From: a virus | Lineage: Duplodnaviria; Caudoviricetes | Virus record (IMG/VR): IMGVR_UViG_3300049164_000142 | Location: 1-41,317 of that record | Length of the DNA: 41,317 nt | Reading direction: 5' to 3' (one strand) | Shown here: piece by piece, positions 21,145 to 30,182 of the stretch | How the letters are laid out: the number at the start of each line of letters is the position of its first letter | Position numbering within the stretch: the first letter of the stretch is position 1 | Program-made: the position numbers and the translations under genes | The notes under the pieces: generated by a model | What the model was told of the DNA's origin: nothing | What the model saw: only the letters and a program-made list of their open reading frames with translations | The model's database searches: none

Positions 21145-21188
21145 GCAGACAGGCCCCTCCCGCCCAACGGCGGGAGGGGCCTGTCTGC
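21145..21188. terminator. Bidirectional terminator ending the late operon
   Basis: Perfect 20-bp stem GCAGACAGGCCCCTCCCGCC-caac-GGCGGGAGGGGCCTGTCTGC between convergent genes. Confidence 0.85.
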
Positions 21189-21192
21189 GTGT

Positions 21193-21813
21193 CTACCTTA
21201 GGCGGGCACCGGGAAAGTAAGGGAGATCCACGTCGTAAGGGATGATCCAGGGCTCGAGCCCTTGACGCCGGCAGCTGATCAGCAACCGGACCGGGGACCT
21301 CAGCCATTGATCGCGCCACCGCTGGTTCACGTCCTGGCCCTCTTGCCACCGCGGCGGCCTTGTCTTCTCGATGGAGAAGGGACGCCCGCGGCCCACATGC
21401 ATGGGTACGGGGGCGACGCTCTGGCCGTCGACGTTGGCGCCGTCCGCTCCGTAAGTGAACTGGTATGGGCCCCAGACTTGCGCGTCGATCTCCTCTTGGG
21501 TGGGGCCTTGGCTGTGTCGCGGCGTACGGTCGGCGTCGTCGCTGCTGATGATCCGAATCGCGACCTCATCGAGAAAGCGCAGCGGCAACGGGCCAACGAG
21601 TTGCACATCCAGCATCCCCCTGTCGCCCTCGCCGCGCTTGAACGTGATGACGAACTCCGGAGTGAGTTCGGCGTGCCAGCGCTCGTGCTCGATCGCTGCA
21701 ACGGCTGCTGCGGTGGCACTCGACCGCCGTGCCGCGCGCCACGCCCCTAGCGCAGCTACTGCGCTCAGCCCAGCTGCGGAGATGCTCGCTATCTCGGTCC
21801 AGGAGATGTTCAT
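21193..21813 (-). CDS. N-terminally membrane-anchored hypothetical protein (moron)
   Basis: MNISWTEIASISAAGLSAVAALGAW hydrophobic start; TATTGT -10 box 7 nt before ATG. Confidence 0.7.
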   Translation of the reverse strand: MNISWTEIASISAAGLSAVAALGAWRAARRSSATAAAVAAIEHERWHAELTPEFVITFKRGEGDRGMLDVQLVGPLPLRFLDEVAIRIISSDDADRTPRHSQGPTQEEIDAQVWGPYQFTYGADGANVDGQSVAPVPMHVGRGRPFSIEKTRPPRWQEGQDVNQRWRDQWLRSPVRLLISCRRQGLEPWIIPYDVDLPYFPGARLR

Positions 21814-21920
21814 GAGCCGGACAATAGCGACCGCCGCAGACACCGCAGGTAGCTTGAGCCCAACCCTCACGGCGCCGAGGGCGCCTGCTTCTCGGCGCAG
21901 GCGGTGCACTGATTGGCGAA

Positions 21921-21968: not shown

Positions 21969-22610
21969 GTGATTGAGACCATCGTGTTCGACGTCGGAGA
22001 GACCCTGACCCGGGACGACCGCTACTGGGCCTCCTGGGCGGACTGGCTCGGAGCACCCCGTCACACCGTCGCCGCCTTGGTGGGCGCCGTCACCGTGCAG
22101 GGCCGCGACAACGCACATGCGCTGAGACTGCTGCGCCCAGATATCGACATTGCAGCCGAGTACGAAGCCCGTGAAGCTGCCGGACGTGGCGAGCAGCTGG
22201 ACGAGAGCGACCTGTACGAGGACGTACGGCCCGCACTGTCTGCCCTGCGGTCTCAAGGAGTTCGCGTCGTCGTTGCTGGGAACCAGACCGTGAAGGTGGG
22301 GCGGCTACTTCGTGCCCTTGAGCTTCCTGCGGACTTGGTGGCGACGTCGGGGGAGTGGGGCGTCGCGAAGCCATCGCCGGCGTTCTTCGAGCGTGTTCTC
22401 GAGGTAGCGCAGGCACCCGCGGAGCGGACCCTGTACGTCGGCGACCACCCCGCCAACGACGTGTTCCCCGCGAAGGCGGCCGGACTGAAGGTGGCGCATT
22501 TGCGGCGCGGCCCATGGGGACACCTGTGGGCGGAAGACCCGAAGGTACTCGCAGCTGCAGACTGGAGTATCGGCGCACTTACCGACCTCATCCGCATCGT
22601 CGGCGAGTAG
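21969..22610 (+). CDS. HAD-superfamily hydrolase
   Basis: Motif I FDVGETL, motif II AGNQ, KPSPAFF, motif IV YVGDHPANDV. Confidence 0.9.
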   Translation: MIETIVFDVGETLTRDDRYWASWADWLGAPRHTVAALVGAVTVQGRDNAHALRLLRPDIDIAAEYEAREAAGRGEQLDESDLYEDVRPALSALRSQGVRVVVAGNQTVKVGRLLRALELPADLVATSGEWGVAKPSPAFFERVLEVAQAPAERTLYVGDHPANDVFPAKAAGLKVAHLRRGPWGHLWAEDPKVLAAADWSIGALTDLIRIVGE

Positions 22611-22618
22611 AGGCAACA

Positions 22619-22656
22619 GAACGGCCCTGCTTGGCATATGCCAGGCAGGGCCGTTC
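22619..22656. terminator. 38-bp near-perfect palindrome after HAD (terminator or operator)
   Basis: GAACGGCCCTGCTTGGCA-TA-TGCCAGGCAGGGCCGTTC, one G-T mismatch. Confidence 0.6.
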
Positions 22657-22716
22657 GCGTATCCCGCGCCCTGAGGCGTGGGTACGGTTCAGAGTGACGC
22701 CCTGAACGGAGCCAGT

Positions 22717-23889
22717 ATGCCCGCCAACTCACCGCGGGAGGTAGGCCGCCGGATTGCCGCGACCCGCCAGTCCCGCCGCATGACGCAGTCCGACCTCGCC
22801 CGCGCTGCTTTCGTCTCCCTCGCCACGATCAAGGGAATCGAGCGGGGGGCCCGCAACCCCGGCGATGCGACCCTCGACTCCATCGCCGCCGCGCTCGCCG
22901 TCGACCCCTCACGGCTCGCCACCGGCCACACCGGCACCGAACGCCGGGTACACAGCGCACTGCCCGAACTCTCCGCAGTGTTGGCCTCCTACGACATTCC
23001 TCTCGACCCGCCGCGCCGCACCGGTCACGAACTGCAGGCTGCCGTCAGCGAAGCGGTGAACTGGCGGCTCGCAGCCCAGTACAGCCTCATCGCCAAGCAG
23101 GCCCCTGCCTTGATCGAGGACACGCTCGCCCACCTGCACGCCCGTCCTGGCCCGAGCGCGGCCCGGCTGGTCGTGTCTGCGGCGCGCTGCGCGGACGCCG
23201 TCGCCTACAAGTACGGTGCCCACGACCTGTCCGCGCGCCTCATCGACGTGATGCGGTGGGCCTCCAATCAGGCAGACGACCTGCTGCTCGCATCCACCGT
23301 GGCGTACGTGCGAACGGAAACCTTCTTTGCCGCCCGAGCCCACCGGGCCGGGCTGCGCGCGCTCGAGCTGGCCGTTGACGTCGCGCCTGCGCCCAGCGAC
23401 CCGACCAGTACAGCCGCGCGCGGCGCGCTCCACATGCGTGCAGCCGTCATCGCAGGCCGCGCCAACGACGCCGACGCCGCAGCCACACACCTGGCGGAAG
23501 CCCGCGAATTGGGTGACACCATCCGTGAAGACGTGTATGGCGGCACCGCGTTCGGGCCGGACTCCGTCCGCACCCATGAAGTGTCCGTGGCCGTGAGTCT
23601 GGGCGGAGATCACGTCGGCCGCGCTCTCGATGTCGCGGAGGAGTGGAAGCCCGGCGACGCCCTCCCCCAGGAGCGCCGCTCGGGCTTCTACATTGAACTG
23701 GCCCGGGCACAGCTGTGGTCCGGACGCAGCGACGACGCTTTCGAGTCCTTGAAGGTGGCCCGCCACATCGCTCCCCAGCACACTCGTGAGCATCCGTGGG
23801 CAAGGGAAGACGCGGCCACCCTCCGCCGCCTGAAGCGCGCCGACGCGGAGAGCCTCACGAGCTTCGCGGAATGGATCGGCGCCGTGTAG
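22717..23889 (+). CDS. XRE-family regulator with long helical-repeat (TPR-like) C-terminal domain
   Basis: HTH MTQSDLARAAFVSLATIKGIERG; GALHMRAAVIAGR, FGPDSV, IELARAQ, ARHIAPQ. Confidence 0.85.
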   Translation: MPANSPREVGRRIAATRQSRRMTQSDLARAAFVSLATIKGIERGARNPGDATLDSIAAALAVDPSRLATGHTGTERRVHSALPELSAVLASYDIPLDPPRRTGHELQAAVSEAVNWRLAAQYSLIAKQAPALIEDTLAHLHARPGPSAARLVVSAARCADAVAYKYGAHDLSARLIDVMRWASNQADDLLLASTVAYVRTETFFAARAHRAGLRALELAVDVAPAPSDPTSTAARGALHMRAAVIAGRANDADAAATHLAEARELGDTIREDVYGGTAFGPDSVRTHEVSVAVSLGGDHVGRALDVAEEWKPGDALPQERRSGFYIELARAQLWSGRSDDAFESLKVARHIAPQHTREHPWAREDAATLRRLKRADAESLTSFAEWIGAV

Positions 23890-24001
23890 ACAACCCCCTC
23901 GGAGCGAGGATTCCAGGGCTACAGCTTGTAGTCCTTGTGTCCCTTGTAGCCGTCCATCATCGGTCTCACCACACGGGACCGATTGATGGACGGAGGGAAC
24001 G

Positions 24002-24187
24002 ATGGAGCACCAGCGCGGCCCCTCCCGGCCGGTCGAGCAGCGCGTGAGCATCGCCAGGCTCCACGGCCTGGCCTGCTTCTACTGCGGTGCTGTCGCCAGC
24101 GACCTGTTCGCGGCGGGCCACATCACACTGCCGGGCCGGGAGCGTTCCTGGCCGATCGTCACCTGCGGCTGCGAGGCAGCCCGGTGA
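24002..24187 (+). CDS. Small Cys-rich, putative Zn-binding protein
   Basis: GGAGGG RBS; CFYC...CGC. Confidence 0.65.
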   Translation: MEHQRGPSRPVEQRVSIARLHGLACFYCGAVASDLFAAGHITLPGRERSWPIVTCGCEAAR

Positions 24188-24270
24188 GCGGCGACAGACG
24201 GTTCCCAAAGGACCCCGGCGACCGCGGTCACGGCCCCGGGGCACGGCCAACGCTACGAGGGAGCGTCGAC

Positions 24271-24663
24271 ATGAAGAACGGTACTGCCGAGCAGACCGTG
24301 CCCACAGCCCAGGGCACTGATCCACGACCGGTGAACATCTCCACGATGCGCGAGACGGTGCGCCGCCTCTACGCATACGGCGTGAATAGTGCGTCGCCCA
24401 TCGAGGAGCTGGACGACCTCACCGAGGTCCTGCGGGCACACGTGCGTCTCATGGTCCCGGAGCTGCGAGCGCTGATCCGCTCGCAGCCGGCGGGTGATGT
24501 CAGCGCCCAGATCGCGGAGATCGGGGCGGATGAGGCGTGGCGCCGTCTGAACACCACGCCCGGTTTCGGGCCCGAAGCGGCGTACCGCCGGGCCCGGAAG
24601 CTGGCCATGTCCGTCCAGTCGCTGTGCGACCACTACGAGACGCTCAACCCGCCGGCTCACTGA
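24271..24663 (+). CDS. DUF6415-like protein (family linked to actinobacterial RiPP clusters)
   Basis: GAGGGAG RBS; TMRETV, LRAHVRLMVP, EAWRRL, ARKLAMSVQSLCDHYETL. Family recognised from memory. Confidence 0.7.
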   Translation: MKNGTAEQTVPTAQGTDPRPVNISTMRETVRRLYAYGVNSASPIEELDDLTEVLRAHVRLMVPELRALIRSQPAGDVSAQIAEIGADEAWRRLNTTPGFGPEAAYRRARKLAMSVQSLCDHYETLNPPAH

Positions 24664-24718
24664 GCCGCTGCTCCACACCCATGGCGACCGAATCGGGTTA
24701 AGGGTCGCACCCCCAGAC

Positions 24719-24857
24719 GCTCGCCCCGGCCGGTGGACCGGAAGCCCCAGTCGGGGCGAGCCCCCGCTCCAGGCCGATTCCAGGCAGGACCGTGCCCGGA
24801 GCGGGACCGCCAGTCCGCCTCGGTCCGGTTCCCTCAGGACTGTGACCGGGGCGGGCT
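24719..24857 (+). promoter_or_regulatory. Three consecutive stem-loops upstream of the radical SAM gene
   Basis: Stems 24719-30/24750-61, 24763-74/24794-805 and 24812-25/24844-57, with G-U pairs. Confidence 0.6.
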
Positions 24858-24896
24858 TCCTCATCTCTCCAAACACTTGAAAGGGGCTCAGCGCCC

Positions 24897-25766
24897 ATGA
24901 CCACAGTTGTCCGTCCCGCGCCGCTCGAGACCGCGGCCGCCGGGATCCTCTCGGTCGAGTGCGAGCTCACCGGCAACTGCCAGCTCGAGTGCTCGCACTG
25001 CTGCACCCTGTCCGGACCGAAGGTGAGCCACGGAGACATGACCCTCGCCGACTGGCAGCGGGTCGTCGACGACACCGCGGAGCTCGGCATCCCGGCGATC
25101 CAGTTCATCGGCGGCGAGCCCACCCGCTCGCTAAGCCTGCTGCCGTTGATCTCGCACGCGCTGTGCCGCGGCCTCGAGGTCGAGGTGTACTCCAACCTGA
25201 CCCATGTCCGGCCGGCGATGTGGGCCGCGTTCGAGCAGTACGGCGTGCGGCTGGCCACCAGTTACTACAGCAACCGGGCCGACGAGCACGATCGGATCAC
25301 CGGCGGTCGTGGCAGCCACGCCCGGACCCGCCGCAACATTATCGAGGCCCTCGAGCGCGGCATCCGGCTGCGGGTCGGGATCGTCCACGTTCACGACGGG
25401 CAGCGCGTCCACCAGGCCGAAGCAGAGCTCCGCTCGTTCGGCATCGAGGACATCCGCATCGACCGCGCCCGCGGAGTTGGACGCGCGGCCGCCGACTCCG
25501 ACACCATCCCGAGCGTGAGCGAACTGTGCGGCCGCTGCTTCCACAACCGACTCGCCGTCTCCCCGGACGGCGACGTGTACGGCTGCATCCTGTCCCGCTT
25601 CATGCCCACCGGGAACGTCCGCCGCGAGGGCCTGGCCGACATCGTGCGCAGCGAGCAGTTCGCCCAGGCCCGTTCGCTGATTCCTGCCGCGGGCGCTGCC
25701 TGCACGCCGGACGACTCGAGCGACTGCAATCCGGCCAGTACCCCCGCCTGCAACCCCAAGCACTGA
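24897..25766 (+). CDS. Radical SAM enzyme with SPASM/Twitch-like domain and C-terminal Cys-x-Pro repeat tail
   Basis: CQLECSHC (CxxxCxxC), FIGGEPT, CGRC...SPDGDVYGC...GNV; tail CTPDDSSDCNPASTPACNPKH. Confidence 0.92.
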   Translation: MTTVVRPAPLETAAAGILSVECELTGNCQLECSHCCTLSGPKVSHGDMTLADWQRVVDDTAELGIPAIQFIGGEPTRSLSLLPLISHALCRGLEVEVYSNLTHVRPAMWAAFEQYGVRLATSYYSNRADEHDRITGGRGSHARTRRNIIEALERGIRLRVGIVHVHDGQRVHQAEAELRSFGIEDIRIDRARGVGRAAADSDTIPSVSELCGRCFHNRLAVSPDGDVYGCILSRFMPTGNVRREGLADIVRSEQFAQARSLIPAAGAACTPDDSSDCNPASTPACNPKH

Positions 25767-25774
25767 GGAGCACC

Positions 25775-26914
25775 GTGCACTGGAAACCTCACGCCGCTGC
25801 CCTGGCCGACGGCGCCACACATGGCGCCTCCCGGTGGCGGCCACTGGTCGCGGCCCTGCCGCGTCACGAGTTCGTGCCCCGGTGGTGGCAGCGCGCCGAC
25901 GACGGCTGGCAACTCCACGACGGCCCCGCGGATCAAGAGCAGTGGGCCGCCGCCGCGTACGCCGACCGGTCGCTGATCACCCGCGTCGGCCCTCTCCACG
26001 CCGACCTGGCCGAACCGGGGGAGCGGCCGCACGGAGCGCCCACCTCGTCGGCGACTCTGCCGAGCCTGGTCGTGCGCATGTTCCAACACGCCCGCATCGC
26101 CGACGGCGACCAGCTGCTCGACGTGGGCACCGGCTCCGGCTACGGAACCGCCCTGGCCACGCTGCGCCTGGGCGACGAGAAGGTCACCAGCGTGGACATC
26201 GACGACTACCTCGTGAACGCCGCCCGCTACCGGCTCGACCAGCTCGGGCTGCGCCCGCAGATCGCGACGGTCGACGCCACCGGGCCGCTGCCCGGCGTGT
26301 ACGACAGGATCGTCGCCACCGTCGGCGTACGGCCCGTACCGAGCAGCTGGCTTCAGGCGCTCAAGCCCGGCGGCCGCCTGGTCACCACCATCAGCGGCAC
26401 CACGCTCATCGTCACCGCGGAGAAGCAGGACGACGGCAGCGCCGTCGGCCAGGTCGAGTGGGACCGGGCCGGCTTCATGCAGGCCCGAGCAGGCGATGAC
26501 TACGCGGACACCCTCCCGCCCGGGCTGCTCGAACAGGCACGGCACGGCGAAGGCGAATCTGTCAGCGACGGCGACTACCCGCTCCTGGACATCCAGGAAG
26601 CCTGGGACGTGGCCGCCATGCTGGACATCGAAGCGCCCGGCACCGTCTACGGGTACGACGTCGACGGGCAACTGCGTACGACGTGGCTGGCACACCCGGA
26701 CGGCTCGTGGGCCCGCGCGATGAGCCTGAGCGGCCCGCGCGGCGTGCTCCCGCTCGTACATCAGAGCGGCCCGCAGCGCCTGTGGGACGTCCTGGACCGC
26801 ATCCGCTCCTACTGGCTCGAGCACGGCGAGCTGCCGCTGCGAGGCGCCCGTGTCTGGATCACCCCGGAGGGGCAGACCCGGCTCGCCCGCGGCTCCTGGC
26901 GCGCCGCTCTCTGA
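25775..26914 (+). CDS. PIMT-like O-methyltransferase, RiPP-associated type with C-terminal extension
   Basis: LPRHEFVP, TSSATLPSLVVRM, LDVGTGSGYGTA, YDRIVATVG, WLQALKPGGRLV, VHQSGPQRLWD; GAGGAG RBS overlaps the rSAM stop. Confidence 0.9.
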   Translation: MHWKPHAAALADGATHGASRWRPLVAALPRHEFVPRWWQRADDGWQLHDGPADQEQWAAAAYADRSLITRVGPLHADLAEPGERPHGAPTSSATLPSLVVRMFQHARIADGDQLLDVGTGSGYGTALATLRLGDEKVTSVDIDDYLVNAARYRLDQLGLRPQIATVDATGPLPGVYDRIVATVGVRPVPSSWLQALKPGGRLVTTISGTTLIVTAEKQDDGSAVGQVEWDRAGFMQARAGDDYADTLPPGLLEQARHGEGESVSDGDYPLLDIQEAWDVAAMLDIEAPGTVYGYDVDGQLRTTWLAHPDGSWARAMSLSGPRGVLPLVHQSGPQRLWDVLDRIRSYWLEHGELPLRGARVWITPEGQTRLARGSWRAAL

Positions 26915-26989
26915 CAATCCTGAGCACTTCTCCGAGTGGCCGGGCCGGGCTCGGCTCGCCGGCCAGCCTGCCCGATAGGCACCGATGCC

Positions 26990-27041
26990 GCCCCGCTCGG
27001 TCCGCGCCCCCCGTCGCGGACCGGGCGGGGCTTTCGCGTTT
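26990..27041 (+). terminator. Intrinsic terminator closing the rSAM-PIMT operon
   Basis: 17-bp stem GCCCCGCTCGGTCCGCG / CGCGGACCGGGCGGGGC followed by TTTCGCGTTT. Confidence 0.75.
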
Positions 27042-27175
27042 CACACCCCGTGTGTCCGCTCTGTTCCAGCACGCCGCCCGCGCACCCTGCTGAGCGATCC
27101 GTTCCGCTCGCAGGGTCGAGAGACAGGCCCCGCCGCGCGCCTGGTGGTCCCGGAAGCCTCGGGCCGGCGGGGCCG

Positions 27176-27433
27176 CTACTCGGGTTCGGGAAGCCGCAGG
27201 ACGAACGTTCCCTTGTTCGGCCGTGTGACGACCAGACGGCGCTCCCTCAGCTCCTGCACCGCGCGCCGGACCGTGCCGGGAGCCACGCCGTACTGGGCGG
27301 CCATCGCCCGTTCGTTCGGCAGCCGCGCACCGTACGGCAGGCGGCCGGAGCGGATCTCCGCCTCCACGCTGTCGGCCACCCGGACGTAGACGTAGGGGAA
27401 CTCATCGTCCGGGGATGGAACGTCCTCGCTCAT
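27176..27433 (-). CDS. Single-domain GntR-family winged-helix regulator
   Basis: YVRVADSVEAEIRSG, RLPNER, YGVAPGTVRRAVQEL, NKGTFV; TACGTT -10 box 6 nt before ATG. Confidence 0.9.
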   Translation of the reverse strand: MSEDVPSPDDEFPYVYVRVADSVEAEIRSGRLPYGARLPNERAMAAQYGVAPGTVRRAVQELRERRLVVTRPNKGTFVLRLPEPE

Positions 27434-27790: not shown

Positions 27791-29296
27791 ATGCCAATTG
27801 ACCCCTCCTACCTGCACCTTGTGCATCCCGACGTCGTCTGGGACTGCTTCCTCTACGGCCGTAACTCGGTTGACCCGAAGAAGAAGGGGCGCAGCGTCGG
27901 CGATCAGCTGGACAGCGGTCAGGAACTCGCTGACAAGTACGGCTGGCCGGTGAAGGGCGTCTTCAAGGACACCGGGCTCTCAGCCAGCCGCCACGCCCGC
28001 AAGAAGCGTGACGACTTCGAGGACATGCTGGCACGGATCGAGGCCCGAGAAGCACGGATCGTCGTCGCCTGGGAGGCGTCTCGGTACTACCGCGACTTGG
28101 AGGTCTATGTGCGGCTGCGCAACGCCTGCTACGGCGCCGGCGTGCTGCTCTGCTACAACGGCACGCTCTACGACCTCTCGAAGCGCGAGGACCGGAAGGC
28201 GACGGCGATGGACGCCGTCGGTGCAGAGGACGAACTCGAGGGCATCCGCGACCGCAATCTGCGCACCACCCGCAAGTGGGCGTCGAAGGGCGCACCGCAC
28301 GGCCCGACCCCGTACGGCTACCGGCGGAACTATGACCCGGACACCGGCGACCTCGTCGACCAAGTCGCCGACCGCGATCAGGCGAAGAGGGTCGTGAAGA
28401 TGTTCGAGGCGGTGAAGGCCGGCAAAGCCCTGCGGAGCATCGCCAGGGAGATGAATGAGGCCGGTGAGGTCACGCGGCTCGGCAAGCCCTGGGTGGCGCG
28501 CAGCGTGTACATGGTGCTCCGCAACAAGGCGTACATCGGCATCCGGTCCCACAACGGAGTGGAACACAAGGGCACCTGGAAGGGGCTCGTGCAGCCCAAG
28601 CTCTTCAACGAGGTGCAGGCCATCCTTGATGGCCGGCTCAAGGGGCCAGGGGCCTCCACGGCGGTCAAGCACCTCCTGTCCGGGATAGCGATCTGCGGCT
28701 ACCACGAGGGGGCGGAGCAGCGGGACTTGTACGCCCTTCGGAAGACGACGACTGCCCGCGGCCGCTGGATCTATCGGTGCAAGAGCCTCGACATGTCGGT
28801 CAATGCGGAGCTGTTCGAGGCGTTCGTGGAAGAGTCCGTCGTCACCTGGCTGGCGACGAAGGAGGCGCGGGCGGCCTTCCGTAAGCCGACGGACGGCAAT
28901 GCCGCAAAGAAGGCCCGGGCCAGACTGACGGCGATCGAGCGCCAGCTGGAAGAGGCCCGGCAGCTCGCAAAGACCTTCGACGACGACGGCAACCCGGGCA
29001 TGTCGGCTGCATCCTTGGGATCGCTCGAGAAGGACCTCCGCCCTCTTCAGCAGAAGGCGGAGGCCGAACTCAAGAGGGCGGAGGCGACGATCCCGCCGAT
29101 CCTTCAGGACCTCTTGGGGAACCCGCTCGCCGACGAGGTGTGGGACAAGCTGGACGTGCACCAGAGGCGGTTCGTGCTGAACCAGGTCGTGACCGTCCGC
29201 CTGTTCAAGGCCAGGGCGCCCGGCGTGAAGCGGATCGAGCCGGGCCGGGTCACCCTGTCCTACTACGGCCAACCTGGGTTCGTGCCACCTCGCTAG
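27791..29296 (+). CDS. int: Large serine recombinase (phage integrase)
   Basis: Catalytic YGRNS, DTGLSASR, EASRYYR, PYGY recombinase domain, LLSGIAICG...YRC, coiled coil. Confidence 0.93.
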   Translation: MPIDPSYLHLVHPDVVWDCFLYGRNSVDPKKKGRSVGDQLDSGQELADKYGWPVKGVFKDTGLSASRHARKKRDDFEDMLARIEAREARIVVAWEASRYYRDLEVYVRLRNACYGAGVLLCYNGTLYDLSKREDRKATAMDAVGAEDELEGIRDRNLRTTRKWASKGAPHGPTPYGYRRNYDPDTGDLVDQVADRDQAKRVVKMFEAVKAGKALRSIAREMNEAGEVTRLGKPWVARSVYMVLRNKAYIGIRSHNGVEHKGTWKGLVQPKLFNEVQAILDGRLKGPGASTAVKHLLSGIAICGYHEGAEQRDLYALRKTTTARGRWIYRCKSLDMSVNAELFEAFVEESVVTWLATKEARAAFRKPTDGNAAKKARARLTAIERQLEEARQLAKTFDDDGNPGMSAASLGSLEKDLRPLQQKAEAELKRAEATIPPILQDLLGNPLADEVWDKLDVHQRRFVLNQVVTVRLFKARAPGVKRIEPGRVTLSYYGQPGFVPPR

Positions 29297-30051
29297 CGGA
29301 GCGCCGGGAGGCAGAGGTCGAGCATGAGGAGCGGCCGGAGGGTGGTTCCCAAGCACGAGCTGCTACTCGGCTCGGTCGACGGAAGTGCCGGCGAAGGACT
29401 GAGCGTCGGTCCCGGCGGGGCGGACGGTGTCCCCAGTGTCCTGGTCGTGGCAGGAGCCGACGGCGTTGTGCTGCCCGCCGGTAAGCTCGCCTGTCCGTCA
29501 GGCGTCGGTGAAGGCGCAGGGATCACCGTCCTCACGGCGATCCGGTGACGCGTCGCGGCGGCCTCGCTGACGGGCCCTCCGCCTGACCTGACGCTCGGTG
29601 TGTTGCTGGGCGCAGGCGGCCTTGCGGACAGCGTCCAGTCGGCGGTCGGCCTGGCCGTCGGTGACGGAGGCCGATGCGGTTCCCCGGCTCTCTCTCGTGC
29701 TCCTGGGGCGAGGATCAGGAGAGTGGCGATGGCGGCGATGAGGACTGCCGCGCCGGTGCTGGCGAGGGCGGTGGCCGGGTGAGCACGTATCTCGCGGCCG
29801 AAGGTAAGGACTGCAGCGGCGGCACCGCCGATGTACAGGTCCAAGTGGCGTTTACGCCTGACCGGCCGGTCAGGTACATGCGGTTCTGAAGAATCGTTTG
29901 GGCGCGCGCCGATGGCGCGGAGCATTCGGTCGGTGTCGCGATCTACGCGGAGCAGTGTGAGCTGCCAGCTGATGGAACGAAGCTGCCGGAAGAGCAGGTA
30001 CACACCCAGTGCCAACGCGCAGATCAGACCCGCGAGAAGGACGTTCAGCAT
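29293..30051 (-). CDS. Membrane protein with Pro/Ser/Thr-rich region
   Basis: Two to three hydrophobic helices, PST linker, terminal CLGTTLRPLLMLDLCL; stop overlaps the int stop (CTAG). Confidence 0.65.
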   Translation of the reverse strand: MLNVLLAGLICALALGVYLLFRQLRSISWQLTLLRVDRDTDRMLRAIGARPNDSSEPHVPDRPVRRKRHLDLYIGGAAAAVLTFGREIRAHPATALASTGAAVLIAAIATLLILAPGARERAGEPHRPPSPTARPTADWTLSARPPAPSNTPSVRSGGGPVSEAAATRHRIAVRTVIPAPSPTPDGQASLPAGSTTPSAPATTRTLGTPSAPPGPTLSPSPALPSTEPSSSSCLGTTLRPLLMLDLCLPALR

Positions 30052-30182
30052 CCTCAACCCCCCACAGGCTGTCTGAATTTGCACTGTGCATGGATGGCAA
30101 CAATGCGCCCGTTTGAGATCGATTTCACTGGCATATGCAGCGACCGTTACTGAACCGTGACCAAGCTTAGGGTAGGGGTTGA

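Follow-up and report, generated by a model that had tools for sequence, protein, structure and literature searches.

In the 41,317-base window analysed here, a single virus record (IMG/VR IMGVR_UViG_3300049164_000142), the gene at 24897-25766 (+) encodes a SPASM/Twitch-type radical S-adenosylmethionine (rSAM) enzyme (PF13186 among its matches) whose C-terminal Cys-x-Pro tail probably represents, with a probability of about 0.58, a fused precursor of a RiPP, a peptide made by the ribosome and modified after translation. As judged from sequence comparison, this tail would be the substrate of both the rSAM enzyme itself and the protein isoaspartyl methyltransferase (PIMT) encoded next to it, and cross-linking through its Cys residues would be the likeliest reaction. 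The record, which carries genes for terminase, portal, head, tape measure, endolysin, serine integrase and RecE/RecT, is of siphovirus type; the phage comes from soil and, to judge from its genes, is a temperate actinophage. An earlier note on this DNA had reported that no precursor gene was evident, which stands as far as a free-standing gene is concerned; the likely precursor, a precursor-like tail at the C-terminus of the rSAM enzyme, had been overlooked.

The rSAM core and its Twitch-type domain are encoded at 24897..25700, and the proposed core peptide (residues 269-289; 25701..25766) follows this domain and a helix, with three C-x-P motifs, eight residues apart, starting at C269, C277 and C285, and an Asp273-Ser274 pair encoded at nt 25713-25718. 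Across 115 homologs, C269, C277 and C285 are kept in 114, D276 in 113, D273 in 112 and S274 in 107, P279 and P287 are found in 115/115 and P271 is kept within the same 107-115 range, mean conservation being 0.82 in the tail, 0.74 in the core and 0.60 in the linker. The AlphaFold2 model of the enzyme, with a pLDDT of 86.5, leaves residues 267-289 below 50, that is, predicted to be disordered. In a set of 98 rSAM loci, made up of the best 80 of 528 confirmed genome stretches and of 18 viral loci (the latter from an alignment-based scan of viral contigs, a single-sequence rSAM scan having given no match), the number of C-x-P units per tail ranges from 0 to 12, with at least two in 94/98 and exactly three in 50/98. 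Entire three-Cys units occur two or three times over in L056, L066, L069, L073, L084, P0019, P0040, P0072 and P0083, several of these proteins coming from Kitasatospora/Streptomyces, and such tandem units resemble the repeated cores of multi-core precursors. Ala or Gly stands just before the first Cys in 59/67 units, which resembles a cleavage site, although the internal linkers may be relics of a duplicated gene end.

The link between the tail and the PIMT provides the second line of evidence. The PIMT/PAMT of the window (25775..26914, +; PF01135) is of the RiPP type, 379 aa long with a C-terminal domain, and matches TIGR04188 with 245.7 bits over model positions 4-362, below the cut-off of 380; near its C-terminus it carries W347-x3-G-x2-P, one residue longer than the WXXXGXP motif given in the accessible part of PMC13001092. 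Its ribosome-binding site overlaps the rSAM stop codon, which lies 8 nt before the PIMT GTG, in agreement with the translational linkage described in the earlier note. In a FastTree phylogeny, the window PIMT falls in a long-stemmed rSAM-associated clade (72/83 rows, support 100), outside which the PIMTs of phage graspetide clusters are placed; label counts were not used, since most 'other' labels in the large clade stem from over-long gene calls. Once four of the 98 loci with less than 1.3 kb downstream are left out, the PIMT is directly downstream of the rSAM in 72/94 informative loci, so that the pair does travel together, as the earlier note's co-occurrence check asked. An Asp-[Ser/Gly/Thr] site lies between the first and last tail Cys in 70/72 PIMT-adjacent loci compared with 2/22 PIMT-less loci, and the stricter D-[SGT]-x-x-C in 68/72 versus 1/22. 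When the non-Cys/Pro tail residues are shuffled, a mean of 46.3 PIMT loci and 3.8 PIMT-less loci still show the motif, and therefore part of the covariation signal is composition. The two misses, L001 and L016, have a canonical tail in a shifted frame, and in L088, the informative case among the few partner changes on the rSAM tree, a PIMT from outside the main clade is paired with a tail holding a D-G-C site.

When the PIMT served as the anchor instead, 65/401 genomes of one genus yielded 79 matches; 29 of these were known from the tail search and one had no upstream DNA, leaving 49 stretches, in which a full-length rSAM lies upstream in 24, only a tail in 2, an ATP-grasp gene in 9 and none of these in 14. 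All the upstream rSAMs (24/24) have a C-x-P tail with an Asp-[SGT] site, 16 recognized by script and 8 by eye, although a few of these loci repeat loci of the first set. The PIMT-less loci point in the same direction: a kinase-fold gene is found nearby in 12/22 of them (L050, L064, L072, L074-L077, L080, L085 and L096; L090 and L094) compared with 0/72 PIMT loci, with the motifs HGDLHWxN...DWE or HTDINPSN...DWAW and a Pfam APH match in 3/8 tested, one above the cut-off; one copy is convergent and in six loci an AAA_21 ATPase lies in between. Each kinase group has its own tail type, (C-x-P-x)n or other, and forms sister clades to the PIMT-paired rSAMs; this tracking of tail type with partner type is as expected of a substrate.

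The enzyme itself is compatible with peptide cross-linking. Its core Cys residues C28, C32 and C35 form the CxxxCxxC motif, and the Twitch residues C211, C214 and C230 are invariant in 115/115 homologs. The closest solved structure is SkfB (6EFN), as judged by profile (E 4e-17) as well as by fold (TM 0.73, 22% identity); SuiB, DesII and CteB come next, with the epimerase EpeE among the close fold matches and viperins at TM ~0.62, and the top NCBIfam match is the StsB model at 68 bits against a cut-off of 625. No RiPP recognition element (RRE) was found in the window rSAM, whose catalytic motif begins at residue 28; among 116 homologs this start has a median of 25 and a maximum of 38, which leaves the N-terminus without room for one. 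Its lack is as expected if the substrate is tethered.

A mechanism can be proposed on these grounds. The rSAM would cross-link its own Cys-x-Pro tail, most likely through Cys thioethers (Cys-to-carbon), and fusion of the tail would remove the need for an RRE or a separate precursor gene. The MoaA-type Twitch domain offers an analogy for an auxiliary cluster with an open iron; if C211, C214 and C230 hold such a cluster, the tail Cys would not be needed as ligands and could bind as substrate, a tail thiolate docking at the open iron while the 5'-deoxyadenosyl radical activates the acceptor residue. The resulting ring would give the PIMT the constrained Asp-Ser loop that its family needs, and the PIMT would then methylate Asp273, leading to aspartimide/isoAsp. 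According to the accessible part of PMC13001092, RiPP PIMTs act mostly after cyclisation or folding, on an Asp followed by Gly, Thr or Ser, and the preprint excerpt on cysimiditides (10.1101/2024.10.02.616296) states that their PIMTs need a Zn-folded hairpin; this order of events suggests that the cross-link would come first and the Asp273 modification second. The core may be set free by host proteases that cut after the small residues preceding C269, or the tail may remain on the enzyme. Active-site profiling is described, in the available part of PMC10288494, as able to classify an rSAM reaction. A wider and unlikely generalization would be a self-processing rSAM RiPP class, in which enzymes carry their own C-terminal cores, combine with an exchangeable tailoring enzyme (PIMT, kinase or 2OG oxygenase) having a matched core type, share a phage slot with graspetide and triceptide clusters, and act as phage-loaded chemical defence against superinfection.

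Several observations weigh against a fused precursor and have to be set beside this evidence. The likeness to SkfB is at 22% identity and viperins are also among the fold matches, so that the modelled fold does not fix the reaction. On the rSAM tree (a quick tree of 87 rows), gain or loss of the PIMT accounts for no more than about four changes, the Asp-[SGT] motif was picked after the tails had been seen, and the strict D-[SGT]-x-x-C spacing occurs in only 12/24 PIMT-anchored loci. The near-invariant tail of the main clade fits a structural role as well, and with a fused core each 289-residue enzyme would yield a single product, except where the tail is repeated. A search of short proteins for a free precursor had one candidate and gave no match, and among 1.84 billion representatives there were 17 profile matches, mostly rSAMs or fragments, with two unrelated. 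Copies of tail and PIMT that lack the rSAM core are mostly products of decay, and in a scan of 34 neighbouring proteins no peptidase or transporter turned up as a conserved neighbour.

The alternative that best survives, while keeping a clearly smaller chance, is that the tail is a metal- or Fe-S-binding part of the enzyme, in which the three Cys bind Zn or a further auxiliary cluster, with the PIMT or kinase edit maturing or regulating the enzyme and the rSAM acting on a small molecule or nucleotide, as viperins do. The main clade, with exactly three Cys at a fixed 8-residue spacing (three C-x-P in 50/98 loci, as above), would suit such a site, as would the finding that no healthy family of free tail genes turned up. 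AlphaFold2 leaves metal-folded peptides disordered, and the low tail pLDDT is thus compatible with a metal site, while the Zn-folded hairpin of the cysimiditide PIMT substrates and the viperins among the fold matches point the same way; the match to the pVip profiles is weak (5.9e-10, 37 bits), covers residues 20-152 only and is not full-length. A fixed cluster site, however, needs neither a Cys number varying from 2 to 12 nor whole units in tandem, the tail spacing is not that of SPASM (Cx2Cx5Cx3C), and metabolic partner genes are not conserved nearby.

An improbable variant retains the fused substrate and replaces the thioether by other rSAM chemistry, such as epimerisation, C-H functionalisation of Pro or Asp, or C-C links, the Cys residues then binding Zn or forming disulfides that fold the loop for the PIMT. 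A Pro two residues after Cys is not known as a signature of sactipeptides or ranthipeptides, and here it is invariant after every Cys; close matches by fold include the epimerase EpeE as well as SuiB, which makes C-C links, and the Cys-to-Asp distance differs from 3 to 6 residues across tails. Nevertheless, all types of tail, the kinase-paired ones included, have Cys as their invariant residue, and the best match by both sequence and fold is a sactisynthase.

The pair of genes is already in print. Lee et al. 2023 (Adv Sci, PMC10787088, section 2.3, Fig. S13b, Dataset S1) listed 249 two-gene clusters of rSAM and PAMT under the label 'rSAM-associated?', for which the authors state that neither a precursor nor a substrate was found; the word phage does not occur in the text (0 occurrences). 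Two of the rSAM loci are members of that dataset by accession, L042 being WP_030546717.1/WP_030546715.1 (row 5509) and L041 WP_086696666.1/WP_086696667.1 (row 5515); their rSAMs are 50% and 49% identical to that of the window and their PIMTs belong to the same clade as the window PIMT (support 100). Moreover, the window has the traits of those clusters, namely adjacent rSAM and PAMT genes and a PAMT longer than 300 aa (379 aa) with a C-terminal domain, and thus the window pair belongs to the published orphan group. The earlier note's candidate new class does not hold for the gene pair, given the 249 clusters in the accessible part of PMC10787088; what differs here is that the rSAM's own tail is proposed as the substrate and that kinase-paired sister clades are seen. 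A fused rSAM-precursor was not found in the literature searched, which covers few subscription journals and preprint supplements.

The window pair resembles several known systems in part. With the sactisynthases SkfB and StsB it shares the best profile and fold match, the CxxxCxxC motif together with auxiliary-cluster Cys, as in sactipeptide and ranthipeptide maturases, and, as proposed here, a Cys-rich substrate; it differs in having neither an RRE nor a separate leader-core precursor gene, and in its low identity. The graspimiditides (group 13 graspetides) also have a related PIMT last in the operon but use a separate precursor and an ATP-grasp ligase that makes ester links, whereas in the window one gene appears to replace both; neither the TIGR04187 ligase nor the TIGR04186 precursor matches any protein of the window cassette. 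A Cys-bounded loop, a central Asp for the PIMT and nearby helix-turn-helix (HTH) regulators are common to cysimiditides (type II pamtides), which are free peptides that carry two CxxCxGxG Zn motifs and lack an rSAM; this pair of motifs is present neither in the window tail, which has three C-x-P units, nor in the Cys microprotein described below, which has CxxC...CxC without the Gly pattern. Lanthiphages, in the accessible part of 10.1101/2024.06.26.600839, are actinobacterial, often with a PIMT domain, intracellular, with transporters in 18% and commoner on prophages or plasmids, and their intracellular anti-phage action is shown there; they rely on LanB/LanC chemistry and a free precursor, neither of which is found among the family matches of the window cassette. 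Fusion of an enzyme to the core peptides it modifies, sometimes repeated, is known from borosins and burpitides, which use methyltransferase or copper BURP chemistry instead of radical SAM.

The genes upstream of the pair appear to form a separate module. The earlier note had placed six co-oriented genes between the lysis genes and the integrase in one cassette, and their identities, coordinates and order were all recovered: a HAD hydrolase (21969..22610, +; PF00702), an XRE regulator of 390 aa (22717..23889, +; HTH_3 plus a helical repeat domain, phrog_5823), a Cys microprotein of 61 aa with four Cys in CxxC...CxC (24002..24187, +), a DUF6415 protein (24184..24663, +; PF19979, 8.8e-21), the rSAM and the PIMT. 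The single cassette does not survive, since a perfect hairpin between HAD and XRE (22619..22657; z -6.5) and another reaching the ribosome-binding site of the microprotein (23950..23993, +; z -4.9 for 23890-24005, with a similar stem in related phages) divide the region, and HAD is found in only 4/98 rSAM loci. Scanning viral contigs with XRE gave 28 viral XRE loci, with HAD upstream in 28/28 and the microprotein motif downstream in 26/28; the window-type rSAM was present in 0/28 within the available stretch, several stretches ending early downstream. Conversely, phmmer found the microprotein in 0/98 rSAM loci. The microprotein is a member of the XRE front end rather than the precursor, because it accompanies XRE without this rSAM and is missing from the rSAM loci; its relatives are unnamed actinobacterial clusters only, and it is likely a zinc finger. 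For these reasons the upstream genes lie outside the rSAM pathway, and the region consists of two modules, the HAD-XRE-microprotein front end, which by sequence comparison is a common front end of Streptomyces phages, and then the rSAM and PIMT cargo. That all six genes form one pathway, with the microprotein or another upstream product as the rSAM substrate, is accordingly very improbable, even though the genes are co-oriented, the microprotein has four Cys, and DUF6415 and XRE-like HTH genes recur near the rSAM (13/98 and 37/98 loci; GntR in 26/98).

The cargo behind this front end differs among phages: some have small Cys-rich proteins only, others DUF6415, a graspetide cluster, a PIMT by itself (L110) or a triceptide maturase. 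A complete graspetide cluster of precursor, ATP-grasp and PIMT occupies the slot in 4/28 loci, three of them distinct (L101 = L125, L104 and L115; TIGR04186/04187/04188 checked on L101 and L104), and the triceptide maturase AmcB, above the NF041718 cut-off, is found in 1/28 (L126 6848-7984); the view of the earlier note that an rSAM fills a slot held elsewhere by other maturases was thus borne out. By contrast, the rSAM-PIMT pair is not specific to phages: actinomycete genome assemblies are the source of most rSAM loci, and 28 plasmid records contain matches to the rSAM. It is also found in two Mycobacterium prophages, identical to each other, in which its place is once more between lysis genes and integrase. 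The pair is most likely a mobile unit that the phage holds in its cargo slot. Several ATP-grasp-linked PIMTs (L188-L191, L196) score near the rSAM-PIMT profile (E 1e-155 to 1e-162), and their sequences suggest that the PIMT has been exchanged between graspetide and rSAM units.

As for function, the likeliest use, put forward tentatively by analogy, would be intracellular protection of the lysogen against other phages, which is favoured by the position between lysis genes and integrase, by the absence of a transporter and by the lanthiphage precedent; the earlier note had rightly reported that the cassette has no transporter, peptidase or RRE. PADLOC gave generic HTH, rSAM and methyltransferase matches on the cassette and no system-level match. 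Signalling through XRE ranks below and seems doubtful. The AlphaFold2 model of XRE (pLDDT 91.8) has an N-terminal HTH and an all-helical, TPR-like C-terminal domain, its Atlas neighbours carry minority TPR Pfams (a lead only), and PDB sequences searched by profile matched its HTH, with only weak matches to repeat proteins; a peptide-sensing regulator, perhaps akin to the RRNPP sensors, is possible from the model, but in most of its loci XRE has no maturase beside it, and this makes a dedicated link to signalling less likely. If the fused-precursor reading is true, the tail would supply the missing substrate of the 249 published clusters and turn an open point of the literature into a two-gene, one-peptide mass-spectrometry question; precursor-based mining would be missing a family that, in one actinomycete genus, is present in at least 33 of the 401 genomes sampled, and peptide engineering would gain a useful tool in a cross-linker that is tethered and RRE-free. 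The alternation of graspetide, triceptide and rSAM-PIMT units in one slot hints at a shared function of these orphan RiPPs.

Some tails depart from the usual arrangement. No convincing C-x-P peptide was found elsewhere in the 98 loci. In L079 (8515-8649), a 44-aa peptide arose when the rSAM core was deleted at a short repeat, the tail frame being restored by a 1-nt loss, and is followed by a PIMT and then by another rSAM, whose tail is poor in Asp; the same peptide occurs in two more genomes, and the L079 genome carries an intact copy elsewhere. At first sight a natural free precursor, it was rejected as strong evidence for one, since five further cases look like decay, with ends of insertion sequences, a deletion that breaks the frame or a start that is not clear, and since the PIMT-anchored stretches with no rSAM, tail or ATP-grasp outnumber those with a tail only (14/49 versus 2/49). 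In P0121, three tail units stand in one ORF with an unrelated N-terminal region, which may be a rearrangement. The TIGR04117 model of CXXX-repeat rSAM target peptides gives 14 bits (cut-off 50) with the long tail of L050 and no match with the window tail. The Mycobacterium prophage homolog (L127 2071-2960; MW584209.1 gene 78), annotated as 'oxidoreductase' and placed between integrase and lysis genes, has a TGA at a Cys-like position followed by six C-x-P units, and its next gene weakly matches 2OG-Fe(II) oxygenases. Selenocysteine in the tail was considered and rejected, no second TGA of this kind being found in the 98 loci, and the one in L127 is read as a nonsense change. Nothing relevant on this gene or on phage-borne graspetides was found in the literature searched.

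The remaining features concern borders and regulation. A perfect hairpin at 21145..21190 (z -9.4, 0/200 shuffles equally stable) closes the lysis operon and is likely a bidirectional terminator, common to this operon and to a convergent open reading frame of 207 aa (21193-21816, -), which the earlier note did not mention. Lying between the lysis genes and HAD, this frame has an N-terminal hydrophobic segment, no Pfam, NCBIfam, PHROG or PADLOC match and no counterpart in the 98 rSAM loci. The GTG start of DUF6415 at 24184 overlaps the microprotein stop, with an alternative ATG at 24271. Between XRE and the microprotein (23900-24000), the window and L099-L124 share a conserved intergenic layout of CTTGT-type repeats and then a stem, CATCTG...CAGATG in most phages, that ends at the ribosome-binding site of the microprotein, possibly an operator plus translational control. 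An inverted element GCGACC...GGTCGC at 24680-24705, about 200 nt 5' of the rSAM start, is conserved in L009, L010, L011, L015, L022 and L081 and is a possible operator of the rSAM-PIMT unit. The terminator and the convergent GntR with which the earlier note closed the cassette are both present, the former as a terminator-like 17-bp hairpin 3' of the PIMT (26990..27031, +; z -4.9), which a simple promoter/terminator scan did not report, and the latter as a stand-alone GntR HTH (27176..27433, -; PF00392), replaced by a small XRE in many related phages. The right border of the slot is a large serine integrase (27791..29296, +; family matches), and convergent with it lies a membrane-anchored, Pro/Ser/Thr-rich frame without family match (29293-30057, -), in whose place L101 and L125 have one with a similar hydrophobic start.

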